Source: a virus. Taken from it: a stretch of 64,000 nucleotides of DNA. The notes under the pieces are model-generated. The model ran no database searches. It was not told the DNA's origin and was given only the letters and a program-made list of their open reading frames with translations. Positions within the stretch are counted from its first letter, which is position 1, and each line of letters opens with the position of its first letter. This document shows positions 1,348-41,818 of this stretch, piece by piece. The stretch covers positions 32,770 to 96,769 of the IMG/VR virus record IMGVR_UViG_3300045988_069781, one strand, 5' to 3'. Made by a program: the position numbers and the translations under genes.

Positions 1348-1661
1348 GTGCCGATAAGTCCTGTAAAGCTTATTAATTAGTATTAATGTCTTTACATTTG
1401 TAGAGACACTAATACTAGTTAGTGCCGAAAGTTATTAAACCGAATAGATTTAGTAGGTAATTAAGTTGAATTAACAACTTCCCTCAAGTGCTATATGCCG
1501 TAGGGTGGAAAAACAATGTGCCACTGATCATGTGCCGAAGATCATTACTATTGTTTTAGCTATTGTACTTTATGTCCTGCATAAAAACAATAGGCTCTAC
1601 TTGTAGAGTTTTATAGTAATGGTTATCAAAACACATATAGAAATTGTGCTTTATGCCGAAG
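1348..1661 (+). repeat. array of five degenerate direct repeats (R-TGCCG-W-A-R-G) with associated hairpins
   Basis: GTGCCGATAAG at 1348-1358, GTGCCGAAAG at 1422-1431, ATGCCGTAGG at 1495-1504, GTGCCGAAG at 1532-1540, ATGCCGAAG at 1653-1661. Three copies are preceded by GTGC(T/C). There is a 16-bp hairpin at 1381-1414. TTGTAGAG recurs at 1398-1405 and 1601-1608. The region has no ORF. Confidence 0.5.
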
Positions 1662-2167: not shown

Positions 2168-2465
2168 CACAGTATAAGAACTGTACTGTGTCTTATTAGG
2201 CTTATTAATCATTGTTAGGACGAGGGTTCGATTCCCTCCAGCTCCACGCTCACAAGAGCTACAAGGGAAAACAAAACTAGGATTTTTGATCGTGTTGACC
2301 GTGCGCCAAGTTTTTAAATTTTAGAACGGTCAAAAGGGGCTGCATGGTTTTGACTAGCAATTAGAGAGATAAGATAGGTTCATGTGTGTTTAAATGGCAA
2401 CTATTCGTTTGTCACTGATTATTCTTACGTAGCGTAAGAATATGATGCGTGCTAAATACGAAAGT
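2168..2465 (+). ncRNA. ssrA: circularly permuted (two-piece type) tmRNA-like gene
   Basis: The 3' tRNA-like module lies upstream: GGAC (2218-2221), T-arm GAGGG-TTCGATT-CCCTC (2222-2238), acceptor 3' strand CAGCTCC plus A (2239-2246). This is near-identical in pattern to my recollection of the E. coli tmRNA 3' end, GGAC-GCGGG-UUCAACU-CCCGC-CAGCUCC-A. The 5' module lies about 90 nt downstream: GGGGCTG (2336-2342), then CATGGTTTTGAC (compare GGGGCUGAUUCUGGAUUCGAC). The acceptor pairing gives G1-C72, G2-C71, G3.U70, G4-C69, C5-G68, U6-A67, G7-C66. A P2a-like helix, TAGCAAT (2354-2360) with ATTGTTA (2211-2217), abuts GAC and GGAC. ATAAGATA (2369-2376) pairs with TGTCTTAT (2189-2196). Candidate tag frame 2396-2437 reads GNYSFVTDYSYVA-stop, and its stop lies in the 9-bp hairpin 2421-2441. 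The outer ends of the feature are approximate. Confidence 0.6.
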
Positions 2466-2471
2466 TAGGGA

Positions 2472-2540
2472 TACTCTTTAGTTCAACAGGTTAGAATCGT
2501 GATTTATCACGGAATGTGGGTTCGAGTCCCACAAGAGTAA
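2472..2540 (+). tRNA. tRNA-like element with aberrant anticodon arm (69 nt)
   Basis: Acceptor TACTCTT/AAGAGTA. D-arm GTTC-AACAGGTTA-GAAT. T-arm GTGGG-TTCGAGT-CCCAC. The anticodon arm folds only as CGTGA-TTTA-TCACG (4-nt loop) or with a 6-nt loop, so no standard 7-nt loop or anticodon can be assigned. Confidence 0.45.
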
Positions 2541-2576
2541 CAATTAACTTATGTTTAATTTCTTAAAAGTAATCAG

Positions 2577-2954
2577 ATGAAAAAGATGACTTTAAGCCAA
2601 TTGCATGGTAATCTAAAGACTTTCAGTAAAGAATTTATAGGAGCTGGAAGTAGAAATAGTGTAGTTGGATTGTATCGGAAACTTATTGAGTTAGGAGCAA
2701 TTCCATCCAGTAAGGAAAAGGATAATAGTCTTATTAGCTCTAAGCAAAAGATTGTTATTCTATGTGTTAACGATGGAATTAGAAGTAAATTTGCTCGTAT
2801 CTCATTACATGAAAGATCATGGTGGGATTATTGGCATAACAAAGCACACAAGCATTGTAAGCCAGCTTATATTACTTATAACGTACCAAAACAAATGGGT
2901 ACAGTAATAAGTAATTTAAATATTAAAGAATTAGAAACCCTAATCCCAGAGTAA
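2577..2954 (+). CDS. hypothetical protein (125 aa)
   Basis: ATG ORF directly after the RNA island. No motif recognised. Confidence 0.6.
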   Translation: MKKMTLSQLHGNLKTFSKEFIGAGSRNSVVGLYRKLIELGAIPSSKEKDNSLISSKQKIVILCVNDGIRSKFARISLHERSWWDYWHNKAHKHCKPAYITYNVPKQMGTVISNLNIKELETLIPE

Positions 2955-2955
2955 T

Positions 2956-3150
2956 ATGGAACTATCTTATTGGATTTATTTTAAACCAGGTGAAAAAGAT
3001 AAGCTTAAACAAATTATCGATGAAAATCCTAATCCTTTAATGGCAAATATTGCTATTCAAGAGGAATTTGGTGTATCACTCACCGAAGCTGAGAAAATTA
3101 TTGAGGTGTATAACAATAAAATTAATAAAACATGTCATCAAGAATCATAA
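2956..3150 (+). CDS. hypothetical protein (64 aa)
   Basis: ATG ORF starting 2 nt after the previous stop. Confidence 0.5.
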   Translation: MELSYWIYFKPGEKDKLKQIIDENPNPLMANIAIQEEFGVSLTEAEKIIEVYNNKINKTCHQES

Positions 3151-3566
3151 CACTTGATAAACCTGGTGTATATGTAGCAGAACATAATGCTACTAAAAAA
3201 CAATACTTAGTAAGTATTACGGGACAATTACCCATGTTACGAGTTGCTAACATCCTTGATTTATCTAACTTTACTTTTGGACTTAATTCAACAGTAACTG
3301 CTGTAGATAAGTTAAAGGAAGATATGCAGAATGCTCCAAATGACTATACTTATTCTCCTCTTCAGGTTAAACTGGAAAGAAAAGCTGAAGAAGTAAAAGA
3401 GGATATTCTTGATTTATCCAGATATTCAACATTAGCTGAAAACAAGGATAAATTACTGGAAATGGATGATAATATGGCGGTTATTAACATATGTAAAGAC
3501 GAAGGTCTTGACGTAGCTACTGCCACTGAGATTTGGAAACAATTCAAATTATCATTACGACCGTGA
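3132..3566 (+). CDS. hypothetical protein (144 aa)
   Basis: ATG ORF with a short overlap with its neighbours, typical of phage gene packing. Confidence 0.6.
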   Translation: MSSRIITLDKPGVYVAEHNATKKQYLVSITGQLPMLRVANILDLSNFTFGLNSTVTAVDKLKEDMQNAPNDYTYSPLQVKLERKAEEVKEDILDLSRYSTLAENKDKLLEMDDNMAVINICKDEGLDVATATEIWKQFKLSLRP

Positions 3567-12778: not shown

Positions 12779-12813
12779 TTATTACAGGGGTGCGACTGTT
12801 CAACGCACAATCT

Positions 12814-12885
12814 AGCGGGATGGCGCAAAGGTAGCGCGTAGCTTTCACGAGGCTGAGGTTGATAGTTCGAATCTATCTCCCGCAA
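12814..12885 (+). tRNA. tRNA, anticodon CAC (Val) by hand fold
   Basis: Cloverleaf: acceptor AGCGGGA/TCCCGCA (A1-A72 mismatch), U8, D-arm GCGC-AAAGGTA-GCGC, anticodon arm TAGCT-TTCACGA-GGCTG, variable AGGTT, T-arm GATAG-TTCGAAT-CTATC, discriminator A. Confidence 0.65.
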
Positions 12886-12954
12886 GGTCACTAAAGTAGA
12901 TACTTCCACGTAGTGTGACTGGATTAAAACTAAAATCTACTTAAAATAAATAAT

Positions 12955-13196: not shown

Positions 13197-15116
13197 ATGA
13201 AAATTAAAGGAAAGACTTGTGTAGTCTTTGATATTGAAGTTTTAAAGAACGTATTTACTTGTACTTGTAAGAATACTGAAACAAAACAAATTACAGTATT
13301 TGAAATATCTCCAAGAAGAGTAGATATAGAAGATTTAGCTCTTACATTCTTCTATGAAGATTTCTATTTTGTAGGTTATAATAATATACATTATGATAAT
13401 CCTATACTAAACTATATTATAATGTTATATAGAGAACATTATTTTAATAGATATAGTACTAGAGAATTAACTGAATCAATATTTAGAATGAGTCAATTAG
13501 TAATTGATAAAAATTCTGATTTTGATTTATGGAAAGAGTATAAATACGCTAGAAACTTCTTATCAATAGATCTATTAACAATGCTATATTCTAAAGCTTT
13601 ACGAGTATCTTTAAAAGAGATGCAAGTAACAATGCAATATAAGAATGTAGAAGAATTCGTAGTAGATTGGCATCAAGACCTTCCTGAAAAGGATATAGAT
13701 AGATTAATATCATATAATATAAATGATGTAGAATCTACCGAAGAATTACTATATAGATGTAAAGATCTATTAGAATTGCGTATAGAAACTGAAAAAGATT
13801 TTGGATTACCTTGCTTAAGTTTAGATCGAGTAAATCTAGGAGATAGATTACTTCAATTAAAAGTAATGGAAAAGACAGGATTAAATAAGAAGCAATTAGA
13901 GAATATGAAATCTCCAGCTAATTATGTAGATCTTGAAAAAGTAATATTTCCTTGGATAAAATTTGAATCTCCAATATTGCAAAAAAAGTTAACTGATATG
14001 AAAAATCAGCATAATGTATCACCAGGTAGAAAAGGATATATAAATACTTTTATGTTTGGTGAAATGAAAGTAACTATTGGAGTAGGTGGAATTCATGGTG
14101 ATAATGGTACTTGTATTATTAAACCAAATGAAGATGAATTATTATTAGATAGCGATGTTAACTCACTATACCCATCTCTTATGAGAATGTATCATCTTTA
14201 TCCACCTAAGTTAAAGGATGTATTAGGACAAATATTTCCACAAATTATTGATGATCGATTAGAATTTAAGAGGACTGGTCAAAAAAACAAAAACGAAACA
14301 TATAAATACATGTTAAATGGTGTATCAGGTAAAATGCAAGATGAAACATCTTGGTTATTTTCACCATTTACTGTTATGCAAGTAAGAATTAATGGTCAAT
14401 TATTACTTTTAATGCTCGCTGAAAGACTCTTAAAGTTAGGATGCAAATTATATCAGATTAATACTGATGGTATTTTATATAAGCTTAAAAAGTCTAAATA
14501 TGAAGAATTACAGCAAGTATTAAAAGAATGGGAAAAGCTCACTATGCTTACTCTGGAAACTGAAGAATTTACTCAGTTTTATCAATTGGCAATTAATGAT
14601 TATTTTGGAGTAGAACCTAATAATAAAATAAAAAAGAAAGGATTCTTTCTGACTGATATTGAATTAGGTAAAGGTTTAACTCCTAAAATTATACCTGAAG
14701 CAATTATAAATTACTTTGTACATAATATTCCAGTAGAAGATACAATTAAGTCTTGTAAAGATATATGTAAATTCTTACAAGCTGAAAAAACTGGTAAACA
14801 ATGGACAGTTGAGTATAATGAACAAATTCAACAAAGAATTAATCGTTTCTATGTTAGTAATAGTGGATATTATTTATGGAAATGGAAATTAGATGATACT
14901 GGTAGAAAGTCTTATCAAATAATGTTAAAAGATCATGGAGTAAGATTACATAATAAATTTTATTCTGATGAGGATCTTCAATGGAAATACTCTCAAGGAG
15001 AGACATTCCAAAGTATTTATGATATAGATTATCAATATTATATTAATCAGTGTATAAAAGTAATTGAAAAATTAAAACCAAAGCAGTTAAATCTGTTTAA
15101 TTTTGACGAATATTAA
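13197..15116 (+). CDS. family B DNA polymerase with 3'-5' exonuclease motifs
   Basis: Exo I VVFDIEV. Exo II YNNIHYDNPIL. Exo III YNINDVEST. Pol motif A DSDVNSLYPS. Motif B-like KYMLNGVSGK. Motif C-like QINTDGI. Confidence 0.9.
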   Translation: MKIKGKTCVVFDIEVLKNVFTCTCKNTETKQITVFEISPRRVDIEDLALTFFYEDFYFVGYNNIHYDNPILNYIIMLYREHYFNRYSTRELTESIFRMSQLVIDKNSDFDLWKEYKYARNFLSIDLLTMLYSKALRVSLKEMQVTMQYKNVEEFVVDWHQDLPEKDIDRLISYNINDVESTEELLYRCKDLLELRIETEKDFGLPCLSLDRVNLGDRLLQLKVMEKTGLNKKQLENMKSPANYVDLEKVIFPWIKFESPILQKKLTDMKNQHNVSPGRKGYINTFMFGEMKVTIGVGGIHGDNGTCIIKPNEDELLLDSDVNSLYPSLMRMYHLYPPKLKDVLGQIFPQIIDDRLEFKRTGQKNKNETYKYMLNGVSGKMQDETSWLFSPFTVMQVRINGQLLLLMLAERLLKLGCKLYQINTDGILYKLKKSKYEELQQVLKEWEKLTMLTLETEEFTQFYQLAINDYFGVEPNNKIKKKGFFLTDIELGKGLTPKIIPEAIINYFVHNIPVEDTIKSCKDICKFLQAEKTGKQWTVEYNEQIQQRINRFYVSNSGYYLWKWKLDDTGRKSYQIMLKDHGVRLHNKFYSDEDLQWKYSQGETFQSIYDIDYQYYINQCIKVIEKLKPKQLNLFNFDEY

Positions 15117-27892: not shown

Positions 27893-30800
27893 TTATTCAC
27901 ATTCTTTTTTACGTTGTTTACCCATTTTATCTAATTCCTCTGTAGCAGAATCATTTGCTGCTTGTTTCAAGTCAGCTGTAGTAGCAGATACAAATTCTTC
28001 ATCTAAATCATAATCCTCTACTACTTGTTGTTTTGCTTTTTCTAAAGTCTGAACCATTACATAGTTCTTTGCTCTAGATACTGCCACATACTTCAATTCT
28101 TGTCTTACTTCTTGACCATTTTTATCATTAAACCCAAAAGTATTTATACTACTGTCGTTAATTAAAACTTTACTATAAGTACCACCTTGAGATTTATGAA
28201 TTGTGTGAGCATATCCGTAATCAAACGATTTTCTAAGCTTTAATCTACCGTTAGCGTCTTTGATATCTCGCATAGTGTGAATTTTATTTTGTATCCTATT
28301 AATTTTTTCAACAACAGATCTAGCTGCAGTCGGATTTCCCTCAGCTAACAATTGCTTACGCATACTCCACAAGGTCTGTATATATTCTTGAACTTTTATG
28401 ATATTTTCATCTGTTTCAAAATTAGATACTACATCAATAGTAAACGAAGAAGCAGAAGTATCTATTGCGTCTTTGAGAGTAACTTTATATCCTTCCATAC
28501 TTATACTTTCTTTTCTGTCAGGATATGTTAAATCAATTTGAATAGTAGTGGGTTTAACACTTTGCACTACGTAGTCTCCACTATTCATTAATTTGTATTT
28601 CTTTCTTAAAGAATCGTATTCTCTATTAGAATAACCCATTACAAGTTCTCCTTCATACAATTGTGCTGGTCTCCTACCATACAGAATTTGTCTTATTGCA
28701 GAGTTATAAGCTTCTACAGAAGCATTTGTTGCAGCCAAGACTCTAAAATATAGAGGATCTTGTGAATCTTTCATTTCTTTTAATGAAGTTTTAACAAATT
28801 CTCTAATTCTAGTTTTGTCTGATGAATATTCAACTCCTTGACCATTAGGAGCAATGTCTGTTTCATAGCTAAAGCCTTCCCCATTTCTTACTCTAGTAGA
28901 TTCTTTTAATATAGGATTATCTCCAGTTCTTTCTACTTTGGTTAACTGCAATTGTGCACCATCATTTCTAAATACTTTAGATATATTATTTGCTCTTACT
29001 GGTCTTAATTGACCTTTATCCCCCACGAATATGATCTGAGCACCTTTTGCTGCAATTTGTTTAAGTAAGAAATCGTATAAACTATCTTGAATCATTGAAG
29101 CCTCATCAACTATAACTATTGAAGCATCTTCTATTTTAACAGCAGCTACTTGTTCAAATTTCAATTTGTGTAGATCAAATACATCTTCAGTAATATCAAA
29201 ATCAGGACGCAATCCCAATAAACTTTGAAGTGTAAATACTTTTGCGTTTGGGGTTTTCTGTATAGTTACAGCGTTCGCTCTATGAGTTGGAGCTGAGAAA
29301 ATAATATCTGCATGTATTCTACGCTTCAAATACTTATTAAATATACCCATAATAGTAGTCTTACCTGTACCAGCATAACCAGACAAAGTAATAGATGTAT
29401 CATCTCCATTAACAAATGCTTCTAACTCTTTCAAAGCAGACTTCTGTTGGTCATTCAATTCAAAATCTAATTTAACTTCTAAACCATCATCAAAAGTATA
29501 TACATATTTATCTTGTATTTGCTTAGTTTCTTCAACAGCTTGTTTTACTTCTTCTACTTTGGGTAAAGCTTCTGTTAAACCTACTTGACTGGCATATTGT
29601 TGAAGTTCAGTAAATGATGCGGCTTCACCGTTTCTCGATTGATAAGTCTTAGACCATAAATCAACATTTTCAGTAGCTACAGTCTGTAAAGCATTTTCAT
29701 TGAATTCTCCAGCTTGGTTGAATATCTTAGTCTGTAAACTAGCTTTGACAGGAGTCAAATCTTGTACATAGGTTATAGCCTTAGATGGTGTAAAGTCTAT
29801 GCCGGTAGGTACTACATTGTTATAACCTACAGAAGATTTCTTAAAGCCAAATTCAACAAGTACATTACCCTTATAACTTAAACCTTTCTTATTAATCAAT
29901 TGATATACTGGTACTTTATTTTCATCTACACCAATATATTTATATAAGAAAGTAGTTCTAGGGTCATTGTTCTTATCTAATTTAACCTTCTTATAAAGGT
30001 AATGTATAGGATCACCTGCTTCATTATAACCTACAATACCTCTGAATTTACTAGATTCATCATAGATTATAGAAGGTATTTCAACTTGTTCTCCTTTCTT
30101 ATTAGTTACAAATAATCCACTACCATCATGAGCAACAGGTCTGTATACCGCTCTACCTTCTTCTTCAATAGTTTCATAGCTAGAATCCAATTTATAGTAT
30201 TCAATAGCAGGAACTACGTGATCATTCCACCACAGATTTCTAATTACTTCTTGTAAGTCTATCTGAGATATAACATTTTCTGGATGCTTTTCTAATTCTC
30301 TAATATAATCAAAATATCCTATTTCCTCTCTTATAGAGTTAGGAACATATCTAAATATATTGTTCTTACCGAAAGCATCTCCAGACGTATAGAAAGAATA
30401 TATTGCAAGATCTTTAGCAAAGTCTCTTACTTCTTTATAATCACTTTCATAAAGTTCTTCCCAAGCACGAATTATTTCATTTTCTAAATTATTATCACCA
30501 CTCTTATTGGGTTTATATGCAATGAAGTCAGGTCCTTGTAATTCTGCAGCATCTTCTTTAGGTCTACTAAAGATGTTGTTAATCAACACATTTGAAAAAC
30601 TACCATCACTCCCAAGTAATGAAGGATATTTGCCTTGTAATATATCAGATTTAAGTCTATCCAATCTTCTAGAAATACTATCATTACCAAATAACATGCC
30701 ACGGAATCCCATTTGATTATCTTTAACATATTGATTAAAGAATTTAGTCTTATAGGATACTTCCATTGCTCTAGTGATATTGTTAATATATGTATCATCA

Positions 30801-32119
30801 CTTACTGCATAGCCTTTGGTATAGTATTCAATTAATGATCGTAAGGTTTCAAATTCTGGAGTAAGTCTAATCATGACATTCTGGAATGCATTTCTAGGAA
30901 ATACTAATCCATCGATCATTTTCTTACCCAAGAATGTATTAGTAAACACTTTCAAAGGATTGTCGAAAACAGCCTGTTCAGTCATATACTGTTTCCATTT
31001 ATCCAAGAATGCGCTTTGTAAACCAAAGTTATTACCAAATCTCTTAGTATCAATTTGAGATAAGTTAGTTAATTCTGACAAACTCTTAGAAAATGGAGTT
31101 AATTCTTCATAAGCCTTAAGAATTAATAATTGATTATAGTACCAATCAAAAGTTTCAGTTTTCTGCAATTGTTTTCTAAGATGTGGTACAGTAAACATAG
31201 TTTTTCTTTGATTAGTACTTACACCTTTATCCTTAAGATAGTTCAGAAGATTCTCTTTCTTACCACCGGATAACTCTTTTGCTTTCTTATAGTAATCGTT
31301 CCAAATTTTAGTAAATGCTAATCTTTCAGGATTTTTACCAGCAGGTATTTCAACACCATAAAAACCAGAATATTTATCATATTCAGTTGCATAGTCTTTT
31401 AATATCTGTTGAGGTAAGAAATAGAATGTACTTTCACCTTTACCACTTCTAATTAAGAAGTTAGTCATGTTAAAAGTTAATTTACGTACATTCAAACGAA
31501 TAATATATGGGTCTTTAGCTACGTCTACGTGAGCATTAATCAAAGCTGATAACCAGTCTAAAACATTGATCTTATTTGTATCTTCACTTTGAATGTGATG
31601 CAAATCACGTATACCATAATCATTCAATACTTTATTTGGTTTGAAATTCAATTTAACTAATTGAGTTAATACTTGATGAGCATTAGCTAACGCAAATGGA
31701 CCAATACCAAACTTACCACCATTCAACTCAGCTTTAGTCCTACTCTGGAATGCTGGAGTAGAGAAATACAATTGAGATTTACTAGTTCTCTTACCTTGAC
31801 CAGTTAATTTATCAACATCCTTAAGAATCTTATCTTTCAGATAATCTGTCACAGTATCAAGAGGCTGTCTAGCTTCTGCAAAGTTCATAGGATTGCTAAT
31901 TACTGACAAATACATATCAAGAAGCATGTTTTCATTTGCTTCTCTACTATTTGCTTCAAAATCAGTTTTACCATTGTATCTCTCATAAGCTTTTCTTACT
32001 ACAGTTTCATCATCTAAACCAATAGCTTTCAATCTCTGAACATACTGATCTTTTGTTTCGAACTTGATTCTATTACCATTATTGTCATAGTTATATCTTG
32101 CTATAAATAATTTATCAAT
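27893..32119 (-). CDS. virion RNA polymerase exon 2 (1408 aa) with C-terminal SF1 (RecD/Dda-like) helicase domain
   Basis: The track ORF starts at TTG 32032, but the frame stays open, with no ATG, up to TAG at 32147-32149. Exon 2 would begin IDKLFIARYNYDNNGNRIKFETKDQYVQRLKAIGLDD... Helicase motifs: GYAGTGKTT, VIVDEASMI, FVGDKGQLRPV, HKSQGGTY, YVAVSRAK. Confidence 0.75.
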   Translation of the reverse strand: MDKLFIARYNYDNNGNRIKFETKDQYVQRLKAIGLDDETVVRKAYERYNGKTDFEANSREANENMLLDMYLSVISNPMNFAEARQPLDTVTDYLKDKILKDVDKLTGQGKRTSKSQLYFSTPAFQSRTKAELNGGKFGIGPFALANAHQVLTQLVKLNFKPNKVLNDYGIRDLHHIQSEDTNKINVLDWLSALINAHVDVAKDPYIIRLNVRKLTFNMTNFLIRSGKGESTFYFLPQQILKDYATEYDKYSGFYGVEIPAGKNPERLAFTKIWNDYYKKAKELSGGKKENLLNYLKDKGVSTNQRKTMFTVPHLRKQLQKTETFDWYYNQLLILKAYEELTPFSKSLSELTNLSQIDTKRFGNNFGLQSAFLDKWKQYMTEQAVFDNPLKVFTNTFLGKKMIDGLVFPRNAFQNVMIRLTPEFETLRSLIEYYTKGYAVSDDTYINNITRAMEVSYKTKFFNQYVKDNQMGFRGMLFGNDSISRRLDRLKSDILQGKYPSLLGSDGSFSNVLINNIFSRPKEDAAELQGPDFIAYKPNKSGDNNLENEIIRAWEELYESDYKEVRDFAKDLAIYSFYTSGDAFGKNNIFRYVPNSIREEIGYFDYIRELEKHPENVISQIDLQEVIRNLWWNDHVVPAIEYYKLDSSYETIEEEGRAVYRPVAHDGSGLFVTNKKGEQVEIPSIIYDESSKFRGIVGYNEAGDPIHYLYKKVKLDKNNDPRTTFLYKYIGVDENKVPVYQLINKKGLSYKGNVLVEFGFKKSSVGYNNVVPTGIDFTPSKAITYVQDLTPVKASLQTKIFNQAGEFNENALQTVATENVDLWSKTYQSRNGEAASFTELQQYASQVGLTEALPKVEEVKQAVEETKQIQDKYVYTFDDGLEVKLDFELNDQQKSALKELEAFVNGDDTSITLSGYAGTGKTTIMGIFNKYLKRRIHADIIFSAPTHRANAVTIQKTPNAKVFTLQSLLGLRPDFDITEDVFDLHKLKFEQVAAVKIEDASIVIVDEASMIQDSLYDFLLKQIAAKGAQIIFVGDKGQLRPVRANNISKVFRNDGAQLQLTKVERTGDNPILKESTRVRNGEGFSYETDIAPNGQGVEYSSDKTRIREFVKTSLKEMKDSQDPLYFRVLAATNASVEAYNSAIRQILYGRRPAQLYEGELVMGYSNREYDSLRKKYKLMNSGDYVVQSVKPTTIQIDLTYPDRKESISMEGYKVTLKDAIDTSASSFTIDVVSNFETDENIIKVQEYIQTLWSMRKQLLAEGNPTAARSVVEKINRIQNKIHTMRDIKDANGRLKLRKSFDYGYAHTIHKSQGGTYSKVLINDSSINTFGFNDKNGQEVRQELKYVAVSRAKNYVMVQTLEKAKQQVVEDYDLDEEFVSATTADLKQAANDSATEELDKMGKQRKKECE

Positions 32120-32395
32120 CGCTTGTACCCACTGTTTCCAGTGGGGCTAGACTATATCTTCACTTTGATAGTGCTCCCCATTTCGCCTTTCGGCTACTCT
32201 ACTTGCTTCTTCGATCATTTTTTGATCTATGCGTTCGATAGTCGTTGAACTTTCCCCTATACGGGGCTTAGCTGCTGATTGTCCAATCTCATTGTTTTTC
32301 AAACATTCGCACATATCTTTTCAGATTATGCTGTAGTAAATGAGCTCTAAGGGGTTTCCAGCAATTAAAGGAGTTTTACTTCAACTATGTTGTTA
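32120..32395 (-). ncRNA. group I-like self-splicing intron (276 nt, no ORF)
   Basis: P1: the last 8 nt of the exon, ACUUCGAU (32403-32396), pair with intron GUUGAAGU (32385-32378), giving a U.G wobble at the splice site. The last intron nucleotide is G (32120). GNRA-capped or stable hairpins include CAUAAUCU-GAAA-AGAUAUG, CCCC-GUAUA-GGGG, GCC-GAAA-GGC and CCCACUG-GAAA-CAGUGGG. Splicing restores GSDFD-IDKL. Confidence 0.65.
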
Positions 32396-35300
32396 ATCGA
32401 AGTCTGACCCAGTAAGGGCTGTAAATTCATCAGGAAGAGTAATAGTATCACCAATCTGTTCAGGATAAACGTCCACCACTTTTAAAGCTGCTGTAGAAGC
32501 TTGACCCTGTGCAGGGATACGATAACCCATAGCTATTGCCTTTGTATCTGGACCAATTATATCGTGGTTTATTAACCACGCTTTAGCTTGACTGAAAGTC
32601 ATTTTATCATAATTAGGTATGATGTGTTTCAATAAGTTAATTGATATAACACAATCCATACTACCATCATTATTAACAAAATTAAGCTTTCTTACATGGT
32701 TGGCATCAGATGTTACAGCTAATCTATTATATAAGATAGAAGACATCTGAATAAACATACCACCAGGTAGATTAGTATCTACTATGGCTTTATTCAACAT
32801 TGATATAAGACCACTTTCAATCCAAGAATTATCGGATAAACCTGAAATAGGAGCATTAGTGTTGCCATCTTCTACAGTAAGACCATTCAAAACATTATCG
32901 TTCATGTTTGAATTTTCTGCTTTTCTCTTAAGAATATTGGCAAACTTAACAATACTAGCTTGTGGATTATTGGCATCAATACCGAAGTCTTTTTCTATAC
33001 TCTTTCTACCAAATTCAGTAATAGCATTATGTGCTCCATTGAAGTTATCAATAACCTCTTGTCCTGAGTAAGATACACCGTTGGGAGTAGTATATGTCCA
33101 AGCTGTTCTAATGTTACCCATAGCTGCTTTTTGAGCCTGAGATACAAACATCTGTCTATCTGCATGGTGTGGATCAGTTACTAGCTGACGTCTAAAATTA
33201 ACTAAAGACTGTTTGTGAGTAGGCATATTCATTAAACCTTCTACGTCTACCTTGGTATTTGATTTATCTGTGTAAATCTTAGATTTAACTTCTTCAACTC
33301 TTTGACCAACTTTAACTGCAGATTCAAACGCAAGCATGTGTATGTTTCTGGCTTGCATTACTTTTAATACTTCTCCCATATCCCCTGTAGAGAATATTCT
33401 ATGAACTGGGAACATAGCCATTTTGTCAAATACGGGTATGTCTCTCTTTGCATTTACATCATAATGATCGCCGAAATACATTAACTTCAAAGGTTTTAAT
33501 GTAACGGCTAAGGCTTCATTATAAGTATCTGCATCAGCTTCATAATCTGTTTCAGGGTTATTCAATATATCAAAAGCTTTAGCTACTTCAGGAGTCCATC
33601 CATCAATTCTTCTAACTAATTCTTTATAGAATTCAGGAGAGATAAGTACTGTAGCATCCGTTTGGTTTACTTTGGTATAACCACCAAATTTACTATCAAC
33701 TACAAGATTAGCAGCATCTTCAACGTCTTGGGGCAATGCTTCACCACTCTCATACATTGCAAGAGCTTCTTCTTGAGTCATATCATGCATTTCCTGTAAC
33801 AGTCTTACTGCAGCTGACTTTTTAGCAAATTCATTGATTCTATCAAGCTGTCTACTAGGTATTACATTATCTGATAAAGTACCTACATTAACTTCAGTTA
33901 AGTTTGATAATTCATTACCTTCTCCATAATCTATTCTAGGAGTAACACCAGTTGACAATACCTCACGAAGACGTTTAATTTTATCTACAGGATCTTTATA
34001 ATATGCAGGATCTTTAATAAATAACTTCTCAAATTCTATTACTGAGGATATAGTATTAGCAAAATAGTTTGCCATTAACTCTGTAGCAGCTAACTCTTTG
34101 CTGTATTTTGATACCTCTTGACGTTTTTTATAGTGATTTTCTGCATCATCCAATGCCTTTTGAGGAAGCGCTAAGCTCTTTACACTAGCAAAATCCTTAC
34201 CATTCCAATCAATTATACCTATTTCTTTTGCATAATCCAATTCGTCTTTAAAAGCATCTGTTAAATATTCATTCATTAACAAAGCTTTATCAGAGTTACT
34301 CATCTTAGCCCAAGCTGCTTTTATTTGATTTACTACGGATAATGCTAAGTCACTACCACCAATGTCTTCAGCAAGTTTAAGAGCTTCATTGAAATTAGAG
34401 AAATCATCTACAAATTCAATACCACCTAAAGTTGGTTGTTCTTTAAGTTTAAAGAACCCGTTGAAATATCTAAATCTGTAACCATTTCTATTACCAATAT
34501 CATAGTTCTTTACTTTTTGTTCCTTTGTCAGATTACCTTCATTCTTATAGTTGAATTCAATAGTATCTAATTCAGTTTCAAAGTAATTAATAAATCTGGT
34601 TAATACTTTGGCATTAAATTTAACTTGATTGTTAGTAGTATCTAAAGGTTGATTGAAATTGTTGATAGCTGTGCCATATAAAGTATTATATGTCTGAGAG
34701 TCACCCATAGTAGGTAAAACAATTCTACCTTTCTGAGTAAGTGTCATTTTAGCAATATAATCTTCCAATGGTGAGATTTCTGTATACTTACGTCCTTTAT
34801 CACCACTACCCTGTTCCTTGAAATAAACCAAAGTTTCAACACCTATTTTACCAGATGCGGTAGGATTATTATAAAGATTTGTAAGTAAATAGGAACCTTT
34901 GAAATAATTAGGGTTAGCATTGTTACCAGTATTATATAATACCTTAGTAAGAGCTTCTACTGTAGCTGGATCATTATCAAGATTCTGAACCATATCTGTT
35001 AAGTAGTTATGATCAGATATAGGATATAACAACTTACCATCAGTAGACAATACAGACAACTCATCTGAGTTAGGATGTGTCATACCATACGTTTCAGACA
35101 ATCTACCTAAGAATTTAGAATCATCATAGTATCTGCTGATATGTCTATTAAATGTACCAGGTACATTACCAGATGGTTCAATTTTCAGTACATCTTTTAA
35201 CTTATTACCAAATAAGAATGATAAACCAGCATTACTACCATCAGTAAACAAATTTACTATTTGCTCTGCAGGATTTGGATCATAATATTCTTTAATCAAA

Positions 35301-38300
35301 AATGAATTTAATGTAGCCATATCTACAGATATGCCGGCTCTACTTAAAAGCGACAATACATTATCTTTTATCTTGATAACATTAGCTTCTACATACTCTT
35401 TGTAAGTCTGACCATTCTTAAGCTTAGCGTTTGGTTTATTCTTATAGTTCTTGAGTAAGTTATTAATCTTGTGATAATCATCTAATAATAATTCTACATT
35501 AGTTTTATTATCAGTAGTTTTCAATGTATAACTATCACCATCAAAATTTATTAACTCAGTCATTCTAAGTAAACCATAGTTCCAACCTTCGATTATATTC
35601 TTAGAAATCTTATTTGCATTCTCATCCTTTACATACAAGTTAGTCTGATCATTACCATTAGTATTCTCAATCTTTTCAGACAAGATACCAATAAGTTTAT
35701 GTTTAGCTTTTCTAAAGGTATTTCTAAATTGAGTCTGTAAATTCTCTCTAGCTATTACTTGGGCTTCTGATTCTCCTGGAACGGTCTTTGATATTTTATA
35801 CAATTCTCTGTATAATGTGTCAAAGATAGGTAATGATTTTGCACATTTAGCACATTTATTCATCATACCTTCAAATGTGTTCTCTGAATGCAATTCATTG
35901 ATTATAGTATTCCATGTAGAATCAAAATCAACCATAAGAGGTAAACCTGTAACAGGACTTAATACCGTTCTAGTTTTCTGTACCTTTGCAACAGAACCAT
36001 CTTCTTTTTTAACATCTGCCTCATAGAATTCTCTTTTAGGCATAGTAGCAATGAAGATCTTAATAGATGCTAAAGCATTATCTTTTACTGAGGTTTCTAA
36101 TGACTCACGGATATATGTAGCCATTTGATCTCCTACAGCAGAACCTTCAGCCTTTTCATCTATTTCTTGGTCGATGTTTTCCTGTTTGTCTACAGCTCTG
36201 ATTTGATATTCATTCAGTTTCCTTATAATTGCTGGTAAGAATACACTATCAAAGGTTTCATATATTTCTTTTCTAGCCTCCCCTTGTTCTTTGGTAATCT
36301 TTCCATTTTCTACAAGTTTATCTGTTAATGAAGGTTCTAATGCGCTCTTTAACAAACTATAATTTAAACCTGTTAAATCATCTCGCATCTTTATGTTATT
36401 CAAAGTAAACAAAGAAGCAACTAATGAATTAACACTTTCTTTAAATTGTGTATTTGTGATATTCTTGAAATTGTGACCACCCAATTTAAATGGAGCTCCC
36501 GCACCTTTATAAGTATTTAAGAACTCCTGTACAGCTGCAGAATTCTGTTTAGATCTACTATAATAACCTGTATTGATCCTATCAAAGATGTTGTCAATAG
36601 TAGTATCAGTTCTCCAAACCCATTTACTAATAAAGTTTTTGATTGCTTTCCAAGCTCTTTTAACGATATTTAAATCAGGTTCAACTTTATTCAGCATATA
36701 CTGCCTAAAGTCTTCTGCAAGAGCTTCTTCAATGTCTTTATCAGTACCGATTAAACCAGTTCTATTTCTATAAGCTTCGTATATCTTACGACGTTCTTTG
36801 GGTGAAATAGTTAACAATGATATTCTATGATATGCTTCATGATATAAAGTACCTATTTCTGCGCCTTTCCACAGTAATGTAGAATCCTGCCTAACAAGAC
36901 CCATAGCATACACATTGTTACCTAGTGATATAGCATCATCTACTATTGTAAGAGAATCGCTTTGGAAACCTAATTTCTTTTTGAACCATTCTATTTCCTC
37001 GTTAGACACCTCTTTAGTTACTTTACCAGTAAGACGTCTCATAGGAATATCAATGTCATCGTCTTCTATAGCAAACGGGTCAATTGTGCCATTCTTGGTA
37101 ATTTCATTAATCTTTTTTGATTCTTCTGTTAATTCTTCTGGCTCTACTGCAGAAGTACCTGTAGGGATATTAGATACATTTTCAACCTTATTTTTAGTTT
37201 CTTCAACTGCCTTATCACTTTCTACTTTCTTAGATATGGTTTGAATATCATCCGCATAAGCAAAAGAATCTTTAAACAATTGATCCTGTAAATCACTTTG
37301 GATTAAATTGTTAGTAACAAACAAACCCATTGTATACATAGGCGTATGTTCTGCATTACCTAAGAAGTCTTCTCTACGTAATATTACGCCAGGAATAGCG
37401 TCTTCCCATATATAAGAACTGTTTTTTGTAAACGCTTCTTTTAAGGAAGGTAAAGCATCACCTATAGGACTAAAGAAATTTTCTCTATTAGCTCTCCAGT
37501 GAAATCCCATTAAATCATTAATAAGATCTTCTTTGTCTTGAGAAGACATATTACCTACATGATAAGATTTTTCTCCTACTACCAGATCACCTTTATCATT
37601 TACATAAAGCTGTTTCTTCTTCATCCAATTGAAGGTAGGAATATCAGATGTAACTTTGGTTTTATCACCGAAACGAACCATAAAGTCAATCAATTCCCCA
37701 GCTACAATTTCTGTATTCTTATAATAAGACTCAGGAGAAGCTCCATAATTCAAAAGTAAATCTGCAAGAAATTCAGCTTGTTTTCTGTCAAATCTTTGTA
37801 AATTAACTTGTACAGGTATCTCTGAATTATTAAGTGTACTAGATTTGGGGGGATAGATAAATAACTGACCACTACCACCAGTACCATTCAATATTTCACC
37901 ACCAGCGCCAAGAATCAAACTGTCAGAAATAATACCATTACTGATACCAAAGGTTACATTTTCTGGAGTAATGTCATACACATTGGATGGAATTGCAAAA
38001 CCTTTTACTTCTTGTACAGGTCTGAATACTGCCTTTTGACCATTTCTATTTACATTATATCTACCTCTAGTTCTACTGATAGTACTTGGTACAATAACTT
38101 CATTCTCTGTCTTATTTTCAATGGCAGTAATGATTGCGTTTCTAAAAGATTTTAAGTCATTTATAGAAACTTCATTAGCTTGTTCAATTGTATTAAGCTC
38201 TTCTGCTGTAGCACTATTACGAATACCTGCAATATCTACATCAAATTTAGTTCTAGCTCCTTTAGGAGTCTTAAGTGCTAAAGCATACTTACCAGTAGGA

Positions 38301-41300
38301 TGTTCTACACTTAATATGATAGAGGCACTATCATATGTAGTCTTATCACCCTTTTTGTATGGCTTACTACCTTTTTCAGTATAAGATTCATTGATAATAA
38401 ATTCACAGAAACTATCTGTAAAGAAATTAGGATCTTTGATTCTTTCTGCTAATTCTTTACCAGATTTATAACCCGGTAATATAGGAGTAGTAGAATCCGG
38501 GGAGAAGAACAGTGTATGTGATACGGTATCTTTAGCTAATTCTTCTACTTCTAAAGAATCTTCATATTCTCTAGATTCAGAATCCATATCTGTTTTACTG
38601 TCATGTTTCTGTTCAGTAGCTAATTTCTTTTTAGCCTGTTCAACTTTCTGTTCTACAGTAATATCCGGAGTAATAGTATCAACTGTTTGTGATACTTTCT
38701 TATCTTCATCTGTAGCAGCAGCTAAAGGATCTGCATCTGCATTGGCAGCTGCTCTCAAATCTTTATCTGTAGCAAAAGCAAACTCTTCATCCTCTTCTTC
38801 AACATCTTCTACTACTGGAGCTTTTGTCTTACTTTCTTCTGCAATCCTTTTACGTTCTGCTTCAAATTCTGCAGCTAGTTCTTCCAAACTCTTTGTAGGA
38901 AATTCTTCATCACGTTTAGTTGCTGGTTCTGTTTTTTCTTCAGGCTGCATTTTAGGTGTTGCTTCAGGAGCAGTAGGTTCTGGTGCAGGTATTTCTGTGT
39001 TTACTTTGGATTTTGCTCTAGAATCCATTACAGGAGATTGTGGTTTTTCAACTTCCTCTCTTTGTACTCCTGGAGCAATTTTACTTGCTGCTACAGTTTC
39101 ATTGTTGTCTGTACCATTATCAGCTACTTCTTTTTCTGTAGAAGCAATATCTTGTTCAACAATCTGCTTGGCGTTATCTTCTGCAATTCTACTAGATTCA
39201 TCTGAATTATTCAGGTAGTTCTCAATTCTCTTTTTGATATTATTTAATACCTTTTTCTTTGATTTATCTGTAGCTTTGTCAAAACTAGTAAGTTTGCCAT
39301 CTTCCAGAGTATTACCGAATATCTCATTCATTTTATGCTCTGCTACCAAAGCATCATGCTGAGCTAACATTAAGTTTGCATAGCTATCTACACCTGTCTG
39401 CATAACATGAGGAGCTGCTACAAAATCTGTACTAAACTTTGTATCAGCAGCTACTTGAGCCAATTGACTATCAATGTTCTTAATAGCTTTAGGTATAGTC
39501 TTTAAAATAGATTTAGCTACAGAATTATCACTATTAGTAATACCAAATTTAGTTTTACCATCTTCTGCTGGAGCTTCAATCGCATTCTTTAACTCCTGTA
39601 AAGCTTCTTTCTGTACATTCAACTTAGTCAAAGTAATAGCTGCTAGCTTTTCTTCTGGAGTGTAATTACTCAATAAAGCATCTTCAGAAAGATCTGCATA
39701 CAATTTATTATCTGCATCCTGAGCTGCTTTTGCATTGTTTACAGCTTCTTGTAAATCTAATTGAGCTACATGCTGTAAACCAATTAATGTATTATATTCT
39801 GTAGTACCTGCAGAATAACCTAATTGTTTACCAATGTTCTTAGTAGTCTTAGACTTAGCTAAGTTAAATACATTATTCGCAGTTTTGATTTCAGCATTTA
39901 TATCTTCCTCAGTAAGACCATCAGGCATATGATATTTAAAATTCTCTAATACTTCAAGTACACTATCTTTGTAATTGAGCATAGATTTTGATGCTTTATC
40001 AGCATATGTTACTGCTTTATTCATAGCATCTTTCTTAGCCATATTATCTGCTACCATATCTCTAACAAAAGTGTTGGCAACAAAGTCTTTACGCATATCA
40101 ATACCAGCATGATACGCAGTAGTAGGACCACCTAAGTACATACCTAATGCGAAACCACCCTTTACATCATTCCAGAATTGAGGATCATTGGCTAATTCTG
40201 ATTCAGTATCTATTCCTGATAAAATTTTTGCAGTACGGTAATTAGCTTCGGCTAACCCAAGTAATGATGAAAATACACCAGAAGAATTTTTATCGTACTG
40301 ATTGTGAATATAATCGTAATCAAATATATCCTGATCACCTTCTTCAAAAGCTTCAACAGTAGCAGCAAAACCCATACGAGCTAGAGCTTTAGCACCCTTG
40401 CTCAACATATTCATTTTGGGACTATTGTAAGCTAATCTAGCATTAAATCCGGTGTAAGCATCAATAAGCTTATTATAATTCTTAGTAGCAGTATCAGATA
40501 ATTTAACTAAAGGCTTTAATGCGCTAGCTATAGGTTTAGTTATAATTTTACCCATAGCTTTACCTAATGGGGCAAATATCAAAGCTGATTGTGCAGCATC
40601 CATTGCAGACAAAGCCATGTTATTATTGTAAACATTTTCTAAGCCATTATCTGCTGAATCTTTTAAAGAGTTTAGAACTTCATCGGAAATTTTAATCTCT
40701 CCAGATAAAGTTCTATCTATAATTTCATCATCTGAAATCTTTGTAACATCTATATTAGGATTCTGTTGTTTCAATTGATCTCTACCCATTTGAACATAGT
40801 CTTGGATAGATACACCTTTACTTTCAAGATCTTTTTCAATCTTAGAACGATATGCTCCATACACTTGCGCCAATGATTCTCTATGTCTACTATAGATATT
40901 ACCTGCTAAACTTAGTGCTGTAGCAGCAATAGCTGAGCTCCAACCAATAAGATTAGATGCTGCACCAATACCAGGAACTGCATTCAAAGCGCCAGTAGTA
41001 GCATAATGTCTACCAAGATATAAAGCACCTGTTGCTAATGCGTCAGCTACATAGGATTCAACAGTAGACATTGATGAACCTGTTAAACCAGGTCCGGCGT
41101 ATAATACATAATCAGAATCATAGAAAGGCTTATCTTGAGCTTTCTGTTCTTTTATTTGAAATCTAGCAGAAGGTTTGTATCTTTCAGATCTAGATGTGAT
41201 AGAATCATAATAATCTTGAATGCTCTTATTTACTTCGGATTGTTCGTTTACCCACCAATCTCTTACCCCATTTAAGTATTCAATTCTCTTATCAACATCT

Positions 41301-41818
41301 GTACCTTCTGAATCATTGTACTTTGCTAATATCGTGTTATACTTTTCAGAATTGGCTTCTAAATTGTTTTTAAGAATTTCATATTGCTGTAAGGTATTTT
41401 GATATTCTTGAGAGCTCTTATCCATAGTAGGTAAGACGCTTTCAAGATTCAAAAGCATTTTCTTATCATTTAAATATTGTAATTCATAATCAATATCTTC
41501 AATAACAGGATTAATGTCTTTTACTAATTTAGCTCTTTCAGACATCAGATTAATTTGATCTCTATTATTAGCAAAAGTAGTCCAAGCATCCCTTAAATAA
41601 CTCTTATCCTTTAGTGTTTCTTCTGGAGTTTCTTTATTTAACAGATACGCATATTCATAATCATCTAATGGAGTTGTTTCTAAGTTCCTATCATAACCTG
41701 TTTTAATATTAGTGATAGGAGAATACTGAGCATTGACCGTATCCATAGCCTTACCTAATAAGGCTGCTTTGCTAGGTGTATTGTCAGTAGGATATTGACC
41801 TAATATAGATTTTTCCAT
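32396..41818 (-). CDS. virion RNA polymerase exon 1 (3141 aa) with zincin-like HExxH domain
   Basis: 9.4-kb ORF ending ...LTGSDFD directly before a TAA that I interpret as intronic. HEAYH metallopeptidase-like motif (GTLYHEAYHRISLL). Long acidic disordered linker. A size and context of this kind are known only for crAss-like virion RNAP genes. Confidence 0.8.

Follow-up and report, generated by a model that had tools for sequence, protein, structure and literature searches.

A probable compact two-piece tmRNA gene in a crAss-like phage of the Suoliviridae

The DNA analysed here, referred to below as the window, is a stretch of 64,000 nucleotides (nt) from a virus (IMG/VR record IMGVR_UViG_3300045988_069781, positions 32,770 to 96,769). 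Near its start lies a locus that is probably a gene (ssrA) for a transfer-messenger RNA (tmRNA) in circularly permuted order. A 3' tRNA-like half (2168-2246) is followed by a spacer (2247-2335), then by the acceptor 5' strand together with the mRNA-like domain (2336-2471), and finally by a tRNA-like element (2472-2540). The features of the locus are listed here in window coordinates, with helix lengths in base pairs (bp).

2168-2246, plus strand: acceptor piece, the 3' half of the tRNA-like domain, from sequence, ARAGORN and Rfam; 5' end predicted
2168-2190, plus strand: 5' hairpin of the acceptor piece, stem 2168-2174/2184-2190, loop UAAGAACUG at 2175-2183
2201-2206, plus strand: 3' strand of P2b, CTTATT, pairing with 2368-2373
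2211-2217, plus strand: 3' strand of P2a, ATTGTTA, pairing with 2355-2361
2218-2221, plus strand: GGAC, preceding the T-arm
2222-2238, plus strand: T-arm, within GGAC-GAGGG-TTCGATT-CCCTC-CAGCTCC-A (2218-2246)
2239-2245, plus strand: acceptor 3' strand CAGCTCC, followed by discriminator A2246
2247-2335, plus strand: intervening segment (spacer), predicted to be excised
2295-2302/2326-2333, plus strand: spacer hairpin TTGACCGT/ACGGTCAA, a folding prediction, in a spacer whose fold is not better than shuffles (z = -0.56)
2336-2471, plus strand: coding piece, its predicted 3' end set by the adjoining tRNA-like element
2336-2342, plus strand: acceptor 5' strand GGGGCTG, then CATGGTTTTGAC, through 2354
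2343-2354, plus strand: D-loop analogue, with GAC at 2352-2354
2355-2361, plus strand: 5' strand of P2a, TAGCAAT, a 7-bp helix
2368-2373, plus strand: 5' strand of P2b, GATAAG, 6 bp
2396-2437, plus strand: tag frame GGC...GCG TAA, reading GNYSFVTDYSYVA and a stop, resume codon GGC
2421-2441, plus strand: helix-5-like hairpin of 9 bp, loop UAG, with the stop TAA (2435-2437) in its 3' strand
2448-2468, plus strand: candidate H-type pseudoknot, CGU 2448-2450 with ACG 2458-2460, and loop CUAA 2452-2455 with UUAG 2465-2468
2472-2540, plus strand: tRNA-like element with a 6-nt anticodon loop, AUUUAU; Rfam tRNA 49 bits, ARAGORN 'tRNA-??? (tt)'

The gene is recognised by standard tools. ARAGORN calls a permuted tmRNA (its label is 'tmRNA*') with the tag GNYSFVTDYSYVA, and the Rfam model tmRNA_permuted (RF04321) matches 2189-2437 over its full length with 58.0 bits, above a gathering score of 47 (E = 1.2e-8). 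That gathering score is also exceeded in 12 homologous loci. Both results confirm a preliminary description of the window, which had proposed a circularly permuted tmRNA with the same tag. The outer coordinates reported by ARAGORN, 2157-2528, overrun into the adjoining tRNA-like element and are not RNA ends. Shuffles predict 0.00 occurrences of the 5' motif GGGGY-N4-TGG-N-TTTGAC, of which the 64-kb window has one. No open reading frames (ORFs) of at least 40 amino acids (aa) lie over 2094-2576, a sigma-70 promoter scan found nothing above chance, and a simple scan labelled the 5' hairpin at 2168-2190 terminator-like.

The acceptor stem of 7 bp is formed by GGGGCTG and a 3' strand lying upstream of it, and within this stem G3 (2338) pairs with U70 (2243). 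Discriminator A2246 is not followed by an encoded CCA, the genomic sequence being ACGC. The preliminary description had picked out the T-arm and acceptor 3' end (2218-2246), GGGGCTG some 90 nt downstream, the G3.U70 pair, the discriminator and the missing CCA, as well as the spacer hairpin, the tag frame and the 9-bp hairpin with its stop codon, and all of these are present in the sequence. It had also placed a 7-bp P2a helix against the GAC and GGAC junctions; the helix stands, with its 5' strand moved by one base so that 2355-2361 pairs with 2211-2217. A further extension of P2, by 2369-2376 with 2189-2196, does not survive comparison: it can form in the window, but family-wide it is only 70.7% paired, within or near the range of slid controls. 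Together, a tRNA-like domain with G3.U70, a T-loop of the GGTTCGAnTCC type and no anticodon arm, a P2 helix, a tag frame, helix 5 and a curated score above threshold are all found here, as expected of a tmRNA.

The tmRNA region of the window is ~93% identical to the crAss-like phages cr55_1 (NC_055869, locus L001 of our set) and cr1_1 (Crassvirales, Suoliviridae, Boorivirinae), and more distantly similar to cr50_1 (NC_055868), cr10_1 (NC_055875), cr52_1 (NC_055888) and cr114_1 (NC_055897). At the syntenic place, the GenBank and RefSeq records of these last four phages already have an annotated feature named 'transfer-messenger RNA, SsrA'. ARAGORN calls all four genes permuted, with related tags (GNNFVTDYTAIGA in cr50_1, GNNFVTDYTQLAVA in cr10_1, GNTSYVTDYTRLVA in cr52_1 and GNFYVTDYTRIAA in cr114_1), and their architecture of acceptor piece, variable spacer, coding piece and tRNA-like element is that of the window. 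Given these four sister records and permuted calls, permuted tmRNAs of crAss-like phages are known at the level of annotation. The novelty that the preliminary description had implied for such a gene in a crAss-like phage therefore falls away, and two-piece tmRNAs of marine phages have likewise been published (PMC9004378). The window gene is an extra member of an already annotated group, findable with standard tools, and not a discovery. The clade itself is undescribed in the literature searched: queries combining tmRNA or ssrA with crAss terms returned no paper discussing crAss tmRNA, and mainly gave ARAGORN citations and annotation-pipeline or feature-count mentions. The sole substantive match concerned host SsrA during infection of Bacteroides fragilis by a non-crAss phage (PMC13139388). 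No tmRNA is annotated in the records of cr55_1 and cr1_1, because their T-loop is split by a group I intron of ~720 nt.

Homologs were collected with a family-specific pattern, which gave at least 120 loci in IMG/VR; most of their contigs measure 50-100 kb, many of them close to the ~100 kb typical of crAss-like phages. A first, broader pattern (T-arm plus CTCCAC) was dropped, as it mostly matched unrelated tmRNA 3' ends. Of 126 matches to the 5' acceptor strand, 110 are preceded by the complementary 3' strand, with G3.U70 and discriminator A; in a single one, an ordinary one-piece tmRNA, that strand follows downstream. The homologs span three phage subfamilies and comprise 64 distinct versions, with acceptor stems of the forms GGGGCTG/CAGCTCC, GGGGCAT/ATGCTCC, GGGGTTG/CAACTCC, GGGGCTA/TAGCTCC, GGGGTAT/ATACTCC and GGGGACG/CGTCTCC.

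Covariation was assessed on a 'rejoined' alignment of 35 distinct homologs covering the acceptor stem, T-arm and P2b. Across these helices 99.2% of cells are paired, compared with 46-59% for slid partners; both sides have changed in 9 of 18 pairs, and the covariation score was reached by none of 500 shuffles. The pairings put forward for the window are thereby borne out in related phages: the T-arm is 100% paired with two compensatory pairs, P2b (2368-2373/2201-2206) is 97.6% paired with both partners replaced in four of its six pairs, covariation is seen at acceptor pairs 5:68, 6:67 and 7:66, and G3.U70 is invariant (35/35). MAFFT set P2a out of register between subfamilies, and its strand pairs were therefore enumerated, giving the compensatory variants TAGCAAT/ATTGTTA, TAGTAGT/ACTATTA, AGCAAT/ATTGTT and AGCGAC/GTCGTT. 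Of 39 distinct homologous versions, 32 have the stop codon base-paired, in stems of differing sequence (median z = -3.33 against shuffles).

Other structures are restricted to parts of the family. A third helix, ATTGACT/GGTCAAT, is found in subfamilies other than Boorivirinae. The 5' hairpin of the 2168-2190 type is specific to Boorivirinae-type genes, in which the stem covaries over 11 variants (CACAGTA/TACTGTG, TATATCA/TGATATA, TACGATA/TATCGTA and others) around the invariant loop UAAGAACUG. Within this loop GAACU (2178-2182) could pair with GGUUC (2377-2381), both strands being invariant. The downstream pseudoknot at 2448-2468 is best regarded as a candidate. It has an equivalent in other subfamilies (ACGGC...GUCGU, loop GCU with AGC), in which a single compensatory switch, to GCC/GGC, occurs in one lineage of another subfamily.

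The reading frame of the tag was followed through 34 distinct tag genes, or 42 counting upstream context. Indels are in frame only, the peptides are 13-15 aa long, and all end in Ala followed by TAA or TGA (TAA 21, TGA 13 and TAG 0 among the 34 distinct genes), with the consensus G/D-N/K-x-x-[FY]-[VI]-[TM]-D-Y-[TS]-x-hydrophobic-x-A. Third positions vary in all six codons of the core, and the minor-allele sums for codon positions 1, 2 and 3 are 9, 21 and 53, a Phe/Tyr switch making up 16 of the second-position 21. In one clade the resume codon has changed from GGC to GAC, with a compensating change in a small hairpin from GCCA/TGGC to GTCA/TGAC. The frame has neither start codon nor Shine-Dalgarno sequence and opens with a G-initial resume codon, as tmRNA tag frames do, and the upstream context, AUAACU directly before GGC, is common to the host-type standard tmRNA coding GENNYALAA (L062). 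This pattern of change indicates that the frame evolves under peptide-level constraint, like coding sequence. An overlapping ATG ORF in another frame (2394-2432, MATIRLSLIILT and a stop), which ends at the TAG of the helix-5 loop, was rejected as a real product: only Boorivirinae have it, and the variation agrees with the GGC frame. It is probably fortuitous.

Taken together, these observations make it likely that a crAss-like phage of the Suoliviridae has here a functional ssrA gene, whose product is a compact tmRNA in two pieces, encoded in circularly permuted order.

The segment between the two pieces behaves very differently from its conserved flanks. Across the family, at least 20 classes of unrelated sequence occupy this place; they measure 15-216 nt and always begin with C. 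Such hypervariability between conserved flanks is as expected of an excised segment. Excision of the spacer would leave two base-paired RNAs. A complete tRNA-His(GUG) lies inside the spacer of cr114_1 (L005, 1562-1634) and also in those of L209 and L225, and the spacers of L128 and L221 hold a possible mini-ORF.

Downstream of the coding piece, about two-thirds of distinct homolog flanks contain a tRNA-shaped element that starts 130-148 nt after G1, found by ARAGORN or by eye. The elements are tRNA-Ile or tRNA-Lys, an acceptor/T-arm minihelix, or a 6-nt-loop tRNA, the last in at least 20 loci of Boorivirinae. They share the acceptor/T-arm module, which is what RNase P needs, and are therefore read as a 3'-end punctuation signal; the element at 2472-2540 would in this way fix the 3' end of the coding piece. 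The acceptor stems of 6-nt-loop elements from related loci covary, and the close relatives cr55_1, L146, L165 and L189 carry a normal 7-nt-loop tRNA-Lys(UUU) at the same place. The host-type one-piece gene L039 likewise has no encoded CCA, so that this end is expected to be added after transcription. The predicted product is likely to be two RNAs, ~2168-2246 (plus CCA) and 2336-2471.

In several relatives the same gene is interrupted within the T-loop. Group I introns lie there in cr55_1 (~2436-3155), cr1_1 and about 15 other loci (among them L127, L128, L132, L148, L151, L161, L172, L183, L199, L221, L228 and L235), at two positions: between GGGTTCGAT(T) and CCCTCC, and between GGGTT and CGACTCCC. 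Rfam Intron_gpI confirms the introns in four loci, and some of them carry an HNH endonuclease gene, that of cr55_1 on the opposite strand. The window holds the exact intron-less allele, with the uninterrupted sequence GGGTTCGATTCCCTCC. Self-splicing introns in the T-loop of relatives, beside an intron-less allele in the window, argue that the sequence of the mature RNA matters. A T-loop intron also hides the tmRNA from ARAGORN. A 2025 tmRNA database treats standard, intron and permuted genes as separate forms and lists no combined one (PMC11915505), and both T-loop introns in a permuted gene and the spacer tRNA-His of relatives are apparently undescribed.

A working model for the RNA can be proposed. 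The gene stands at the head of a block with regulators, a sigma factor and replication proteins, and because of this position we suggest that a single precursor would be transcribed early. Host RNase P would make two cuts, one on the 5' side of G2336 and one on that of the tRNA-like element downstream; trimming after A2246 would fall to RNase Z or exonucleases, the CCA-adding enzyme would finish that end, and the spacer would be discarded. The halves would be held together through the 7-bp acceptor stem, P2a and P2b, and host alanyl-tRNA synthetase (AlaRS) would charge the RNA via G3.U70. With host SmpB and EF-Tu, the charged RNA would then enter ribosomes stalled on broken or non-stop mRNAs, which should abound once infection degrades host transcripts. 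A host SmpB is proposed as partner because no phage SmpB was found, either among the annotations of the complete relative cr55_1 or by Pfam in 30 ORFs of the window. Translation would resume at GGC 2396 and stop at TAA 2435, and the freed chain would bear GNYSFVTDYSYVA and be marked for proteolysis; the predicted hydrophobic-Ala end of this tag resembles known ssrA degrons. Overall, ribosomes and amino acids would be recycled to the benefit of phage protein synthesis. In B. fragilis, a strong enrichment of host SsrA has been seen at a late stage of lytic infection, which would be consistent with a demand for rescue; the authors of that work also offer RNA stability as an explanation (PMC13139388).

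Several points weigh against a functional tmRNA. The mature RNA would measure ~215 nt, with only ~12-22 nt between P2 and the resume codon, and pseudoknot 1 (PK1) therefore has no room; lacking this space, and with one pseudoknot at most, it is an unusually reduced tmRNA. Reduced pseudoknot sets occur in other tmRNAs too, and the one seen here is still compatible with membership. Single-sequence folds are no better than shuffles, with z = +0.21 for the coding piece and the spacer value as listed above. The gene of cr52_1 (L004) is called by ARAGORN yet falls under the Rfam gathering score. The 100% pairing of the acceptor stem is partly circular, because complementarity was the criterion for matching the halves; the T-arm and P2b evidence is independent of this selection. 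Expression, processing, charging and tagging are predictions from the sequence, and the compatibility of the RNA with the SmpB and AlaRS of the host is assumed. The Pfam scan, moreover, took in 64 kb of a genome of ~98 kb.

How far other explanations account for the same observations can now be weighed. The locus might be a non-functional relic, either a fragment of host ssrA left by imprecise excision or as an attachment site, or a false positive to which a stray tRNA-like T-arm has given rise. Integration at ssrA is common, and prophages contain fragments of it (PMC9004378); tRNA-like sequences can also mislead both ARAGORN and covariance models into calling a tmRNA (PMC11915505). We nonetheless hold a relic to be extremely improbable: both halves are complete, and order, pairings and tag are conserved with compensatory change over three subfamilies, no integrase is annotated in the close relative cr55_1, the 5' motif is not expected by chance, and the 64 distinct versions of the homologs are not assembly duplicates. 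Nearly as hard to reconcile with the data is a decoy, whose tRNA-like domain (TLD) titrates host SmpB or blocks trans-translation and whose 'tag' is untranslated. Third-position variation, in-frame indels and an Ala before the stop would be unexpected in an untranslated segment, as would a conserved stop-codon helix, and these speak strongly against a decoy, even if the RNA is heavily reduced and without PK1 and phage molecules consisting of a TLD only exist and inhibit tmRNA, among them an RNA of mycobacteriophage DS6A proposed to block host trans-translation (PMC4131195, PMC11915505).

A different proposal accepts a working tmRNA and supposes that it was selected for takeover. The RNA would compete with the one-piece tmRNA of the host for SmpB and stalled ribosomes, and would append a phage-specific tag whose core, [FY]-[VI]-[TM]-D-Y-[TS], addresses a different reader (a phage adaptor or other protease) or serves in signalling. 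The phage tag is 13-15 aa long and the host-type tag GENNYALAA 9 aa; the internal motif of the phage tag hardly varies between subfamilies and is lacking in the host-type tags found; and more than 110 phage loci have kept the gene though every host has its own tmRNA. Set against this, the tag ends (LVA, IAA, LAA, YVA) look like an ordinary ssrA degron, neighbouring ORFs lack a Pfam match and provide no candidate adaptor, and cellular tmRNAs, too, normally have a conserved tag core. We consider takeover an unlikely reason for the gene's retention, though a good deal less so than relic or decoy, and favour a functional two-piece tmRNA engaged in ribosome rescue.

The surroundings of the tmRNA gene contain further structured RNAs. 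A RAGATH-22 RNA lies upstream of it in the window (1351-1530, plus strand; 120.5 bits against a threshold of 120.3), and in relatives (L002, L003, L004, L005, L127, L131, L135, L149, L157 and L191) the neighbourhood holds RAGATH-9, RAGATH-20, RAGATH-7 and RAGATH-7-associated RNAs and Hatchet ribozymes, with RAGATH-9 ending ~20 nt before the tmRNA in L135, L157 and L191. The tmRNA locus lies in an island of structured RNAs, which may be a co-processed transcript. Farther along the window, a tRNA-Val(CAC) (12813-12886, plus strand, 56.3 bits), annotated in cr55_1 too, lies just upstream of ORF 13197-15116, by synteny the DNA polymerase gene of cr55_1. A group I intron (32128-32471, minus strand, 78.6 bits) lies between two giant minus-strand ORFs, 32393-41818 and 27893-32032. 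Both map collinearly to the single 4551-aa gp070 of cr55_1, with 27-33% protein identity, and the intron therefore splits that gene in the window. With gp070-like proteins at this level of identity, the structural module has diverged from cr55_1 far more than the tmRNA region (~93% at the DNA level).

Few viruses of the human gut match crAss-like phages in abundance, and little is known of the ways in which these phages handle host translation. That a tmRNA is conserved in them suggests that infection of Bacteroidales is limited by ribosome rescue. Structure-function work should also profit from so small a natural two-piece tmRNA without PK1. More generally, the clade is a natural experiment in RNA gene architecture: permuted genes occur with and without introns, which enter the T-loop at two positions, tRNAs are carried as cargo in the spacer, and tRNA-like elements provide what we read as punctuation. 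There is a lesson for annotation as well, the gene having been missed in the intron-bearing cr55_1 and cr1_1 and drawn into its neighbour by the ARAGORN boundaries in the window.

Compared with its closest relatives, cr55_1 and cr1_1, the window gene is intron-less and has its own tag variant. Among bacteria, two-piece tmRNAs are reportedly known from Alphaproteobacteria, a betaproteobacterial group and Cyanobacteria, from work by Keiler and colleagues in 2000 and by Sharkady and Williams in 2004. The window gene resembles these in being permuted, in having pieces joined by the acceptor stem and P2, and in the removal of the spacer by tRNA-processing enzymes, which is predicted for the window. 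It differs in being phage-borne, in its much smaller size with a predicted mature length of ~215 nt, in lacking PK1 and in its Gly (GGC) resume codon. RF04321 is a merger of RF01849-51, and a permissive Rfam scan of 2050-2650 for the alpha, beta or cyano subtype gave RF04321 and a truncated RF00023 only, lower matches of the same clan being suppressed.

The predicted hosts of window-type phages, Bacteroidales, have a one-piece tmRNA. With the Bacteroidota one-piece genes (L039, L062) the window gene shares a 12-nt D-loop analogue ending ..TGGnTTTGAC, a P2a that starts AGCA.../...TTGT, GGC after AUAACU, the T-arm GAGGGTTCGAnTCCCTC and an unencoded CCA; those genes differ in their standard order, their length of ~397 nt, a full pseudoknot ring and the 9-aa tag GENNYALAA. 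TLD identity of the window gene is 75-82% to Bacteroidota one-piece tmRNAs and 70-82% to unrelated permuted phage tmRNAs; being no higher to Bacteroidota, it does not demonstrate descent from a one-piece Bacteroidota tmRNA. A scan of bacterial genomes with the family pattern gave 24 matches, compared with ~30 expected by chance (596 Gb x 2 strands x 7 spacings / 4^19), and among these no bacterial lineage with a window-type tmRNA was found. ARAGORN called a tmRNA in three of the 24, permuted in L248 and L252 and standard in L261. L248 and L252, which carry a crAss-type tmRNA, and L246, which has the 6-nt-loop tRNA alone, are GTDB contigs of ~98.6-100.7 kb in metagenome-assembled genomes labelled Bacilli or Gastranaerophilaceae, and are probably mis-binned genomes of crAss-like phages.

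A bolder reading, which we offer tentatively and rate as doubtful, is that the Suoliviridae genes form a separate, phage-born permutation lineage derived from a Bacteroidota-type one-piece tmRNA, now serving as a takeover tool and as a landing pad for mobile RNAs. As part of that same tentative reading, the tag with its F/Y-V-T-D-Y-T core would be put on host nascent chains as a means of takeover. It would further make these genes the first form to combine permutation with a T-loop intron, with tRNAs and other inserts accommodated in the spacer and a degenerate 6-nt-loop tRNA retained for processing alone. Intron-form tmRNA genes with a group I intron in the T-loop are said to have been described by Williams in 2002; relatives of the window phage share this kind of T-loop intron with them and have it in a permuted gene.

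Permuted tmRNAs are also found in other phages. The IMG/VR contigs L026, L029, L074, L105 and L177 carry similar compact permuted tmRNAs, in which the acceptor piece starts near (A/G)TTGAC and the spacer measures 18-73 nt; the tag of L026 is GKVINLFSAPVRLAA and that of L177 ends ...APVRLAA. Contigs of this type suggest a wider set of phage-borne two-piece tmRNAs. In a published survey, 53 of 133 distinct phage tmRNAs were two-piece, 50 of these 53 being marine or aquatic (PMC9004378). The marine phages concerned (the OM43 phage Melnitz, pelagimyophages and cyanophages) resemble the window phage in carrying a permuted ssrA in the early region of a lytic genome, and rescue of hijacked ribosomes or recycling of host proteins has been proposed as the role of their tmRNAs (PMC9004378). 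Their tmRNAs cluster with alphaproteobacterial or cyanobacterial ones, some in the company of a glutamine riboswitch (PMC9004378). The crAss-like clade, unlike these marine phages, belongs to the human gut and has a different family of tags.

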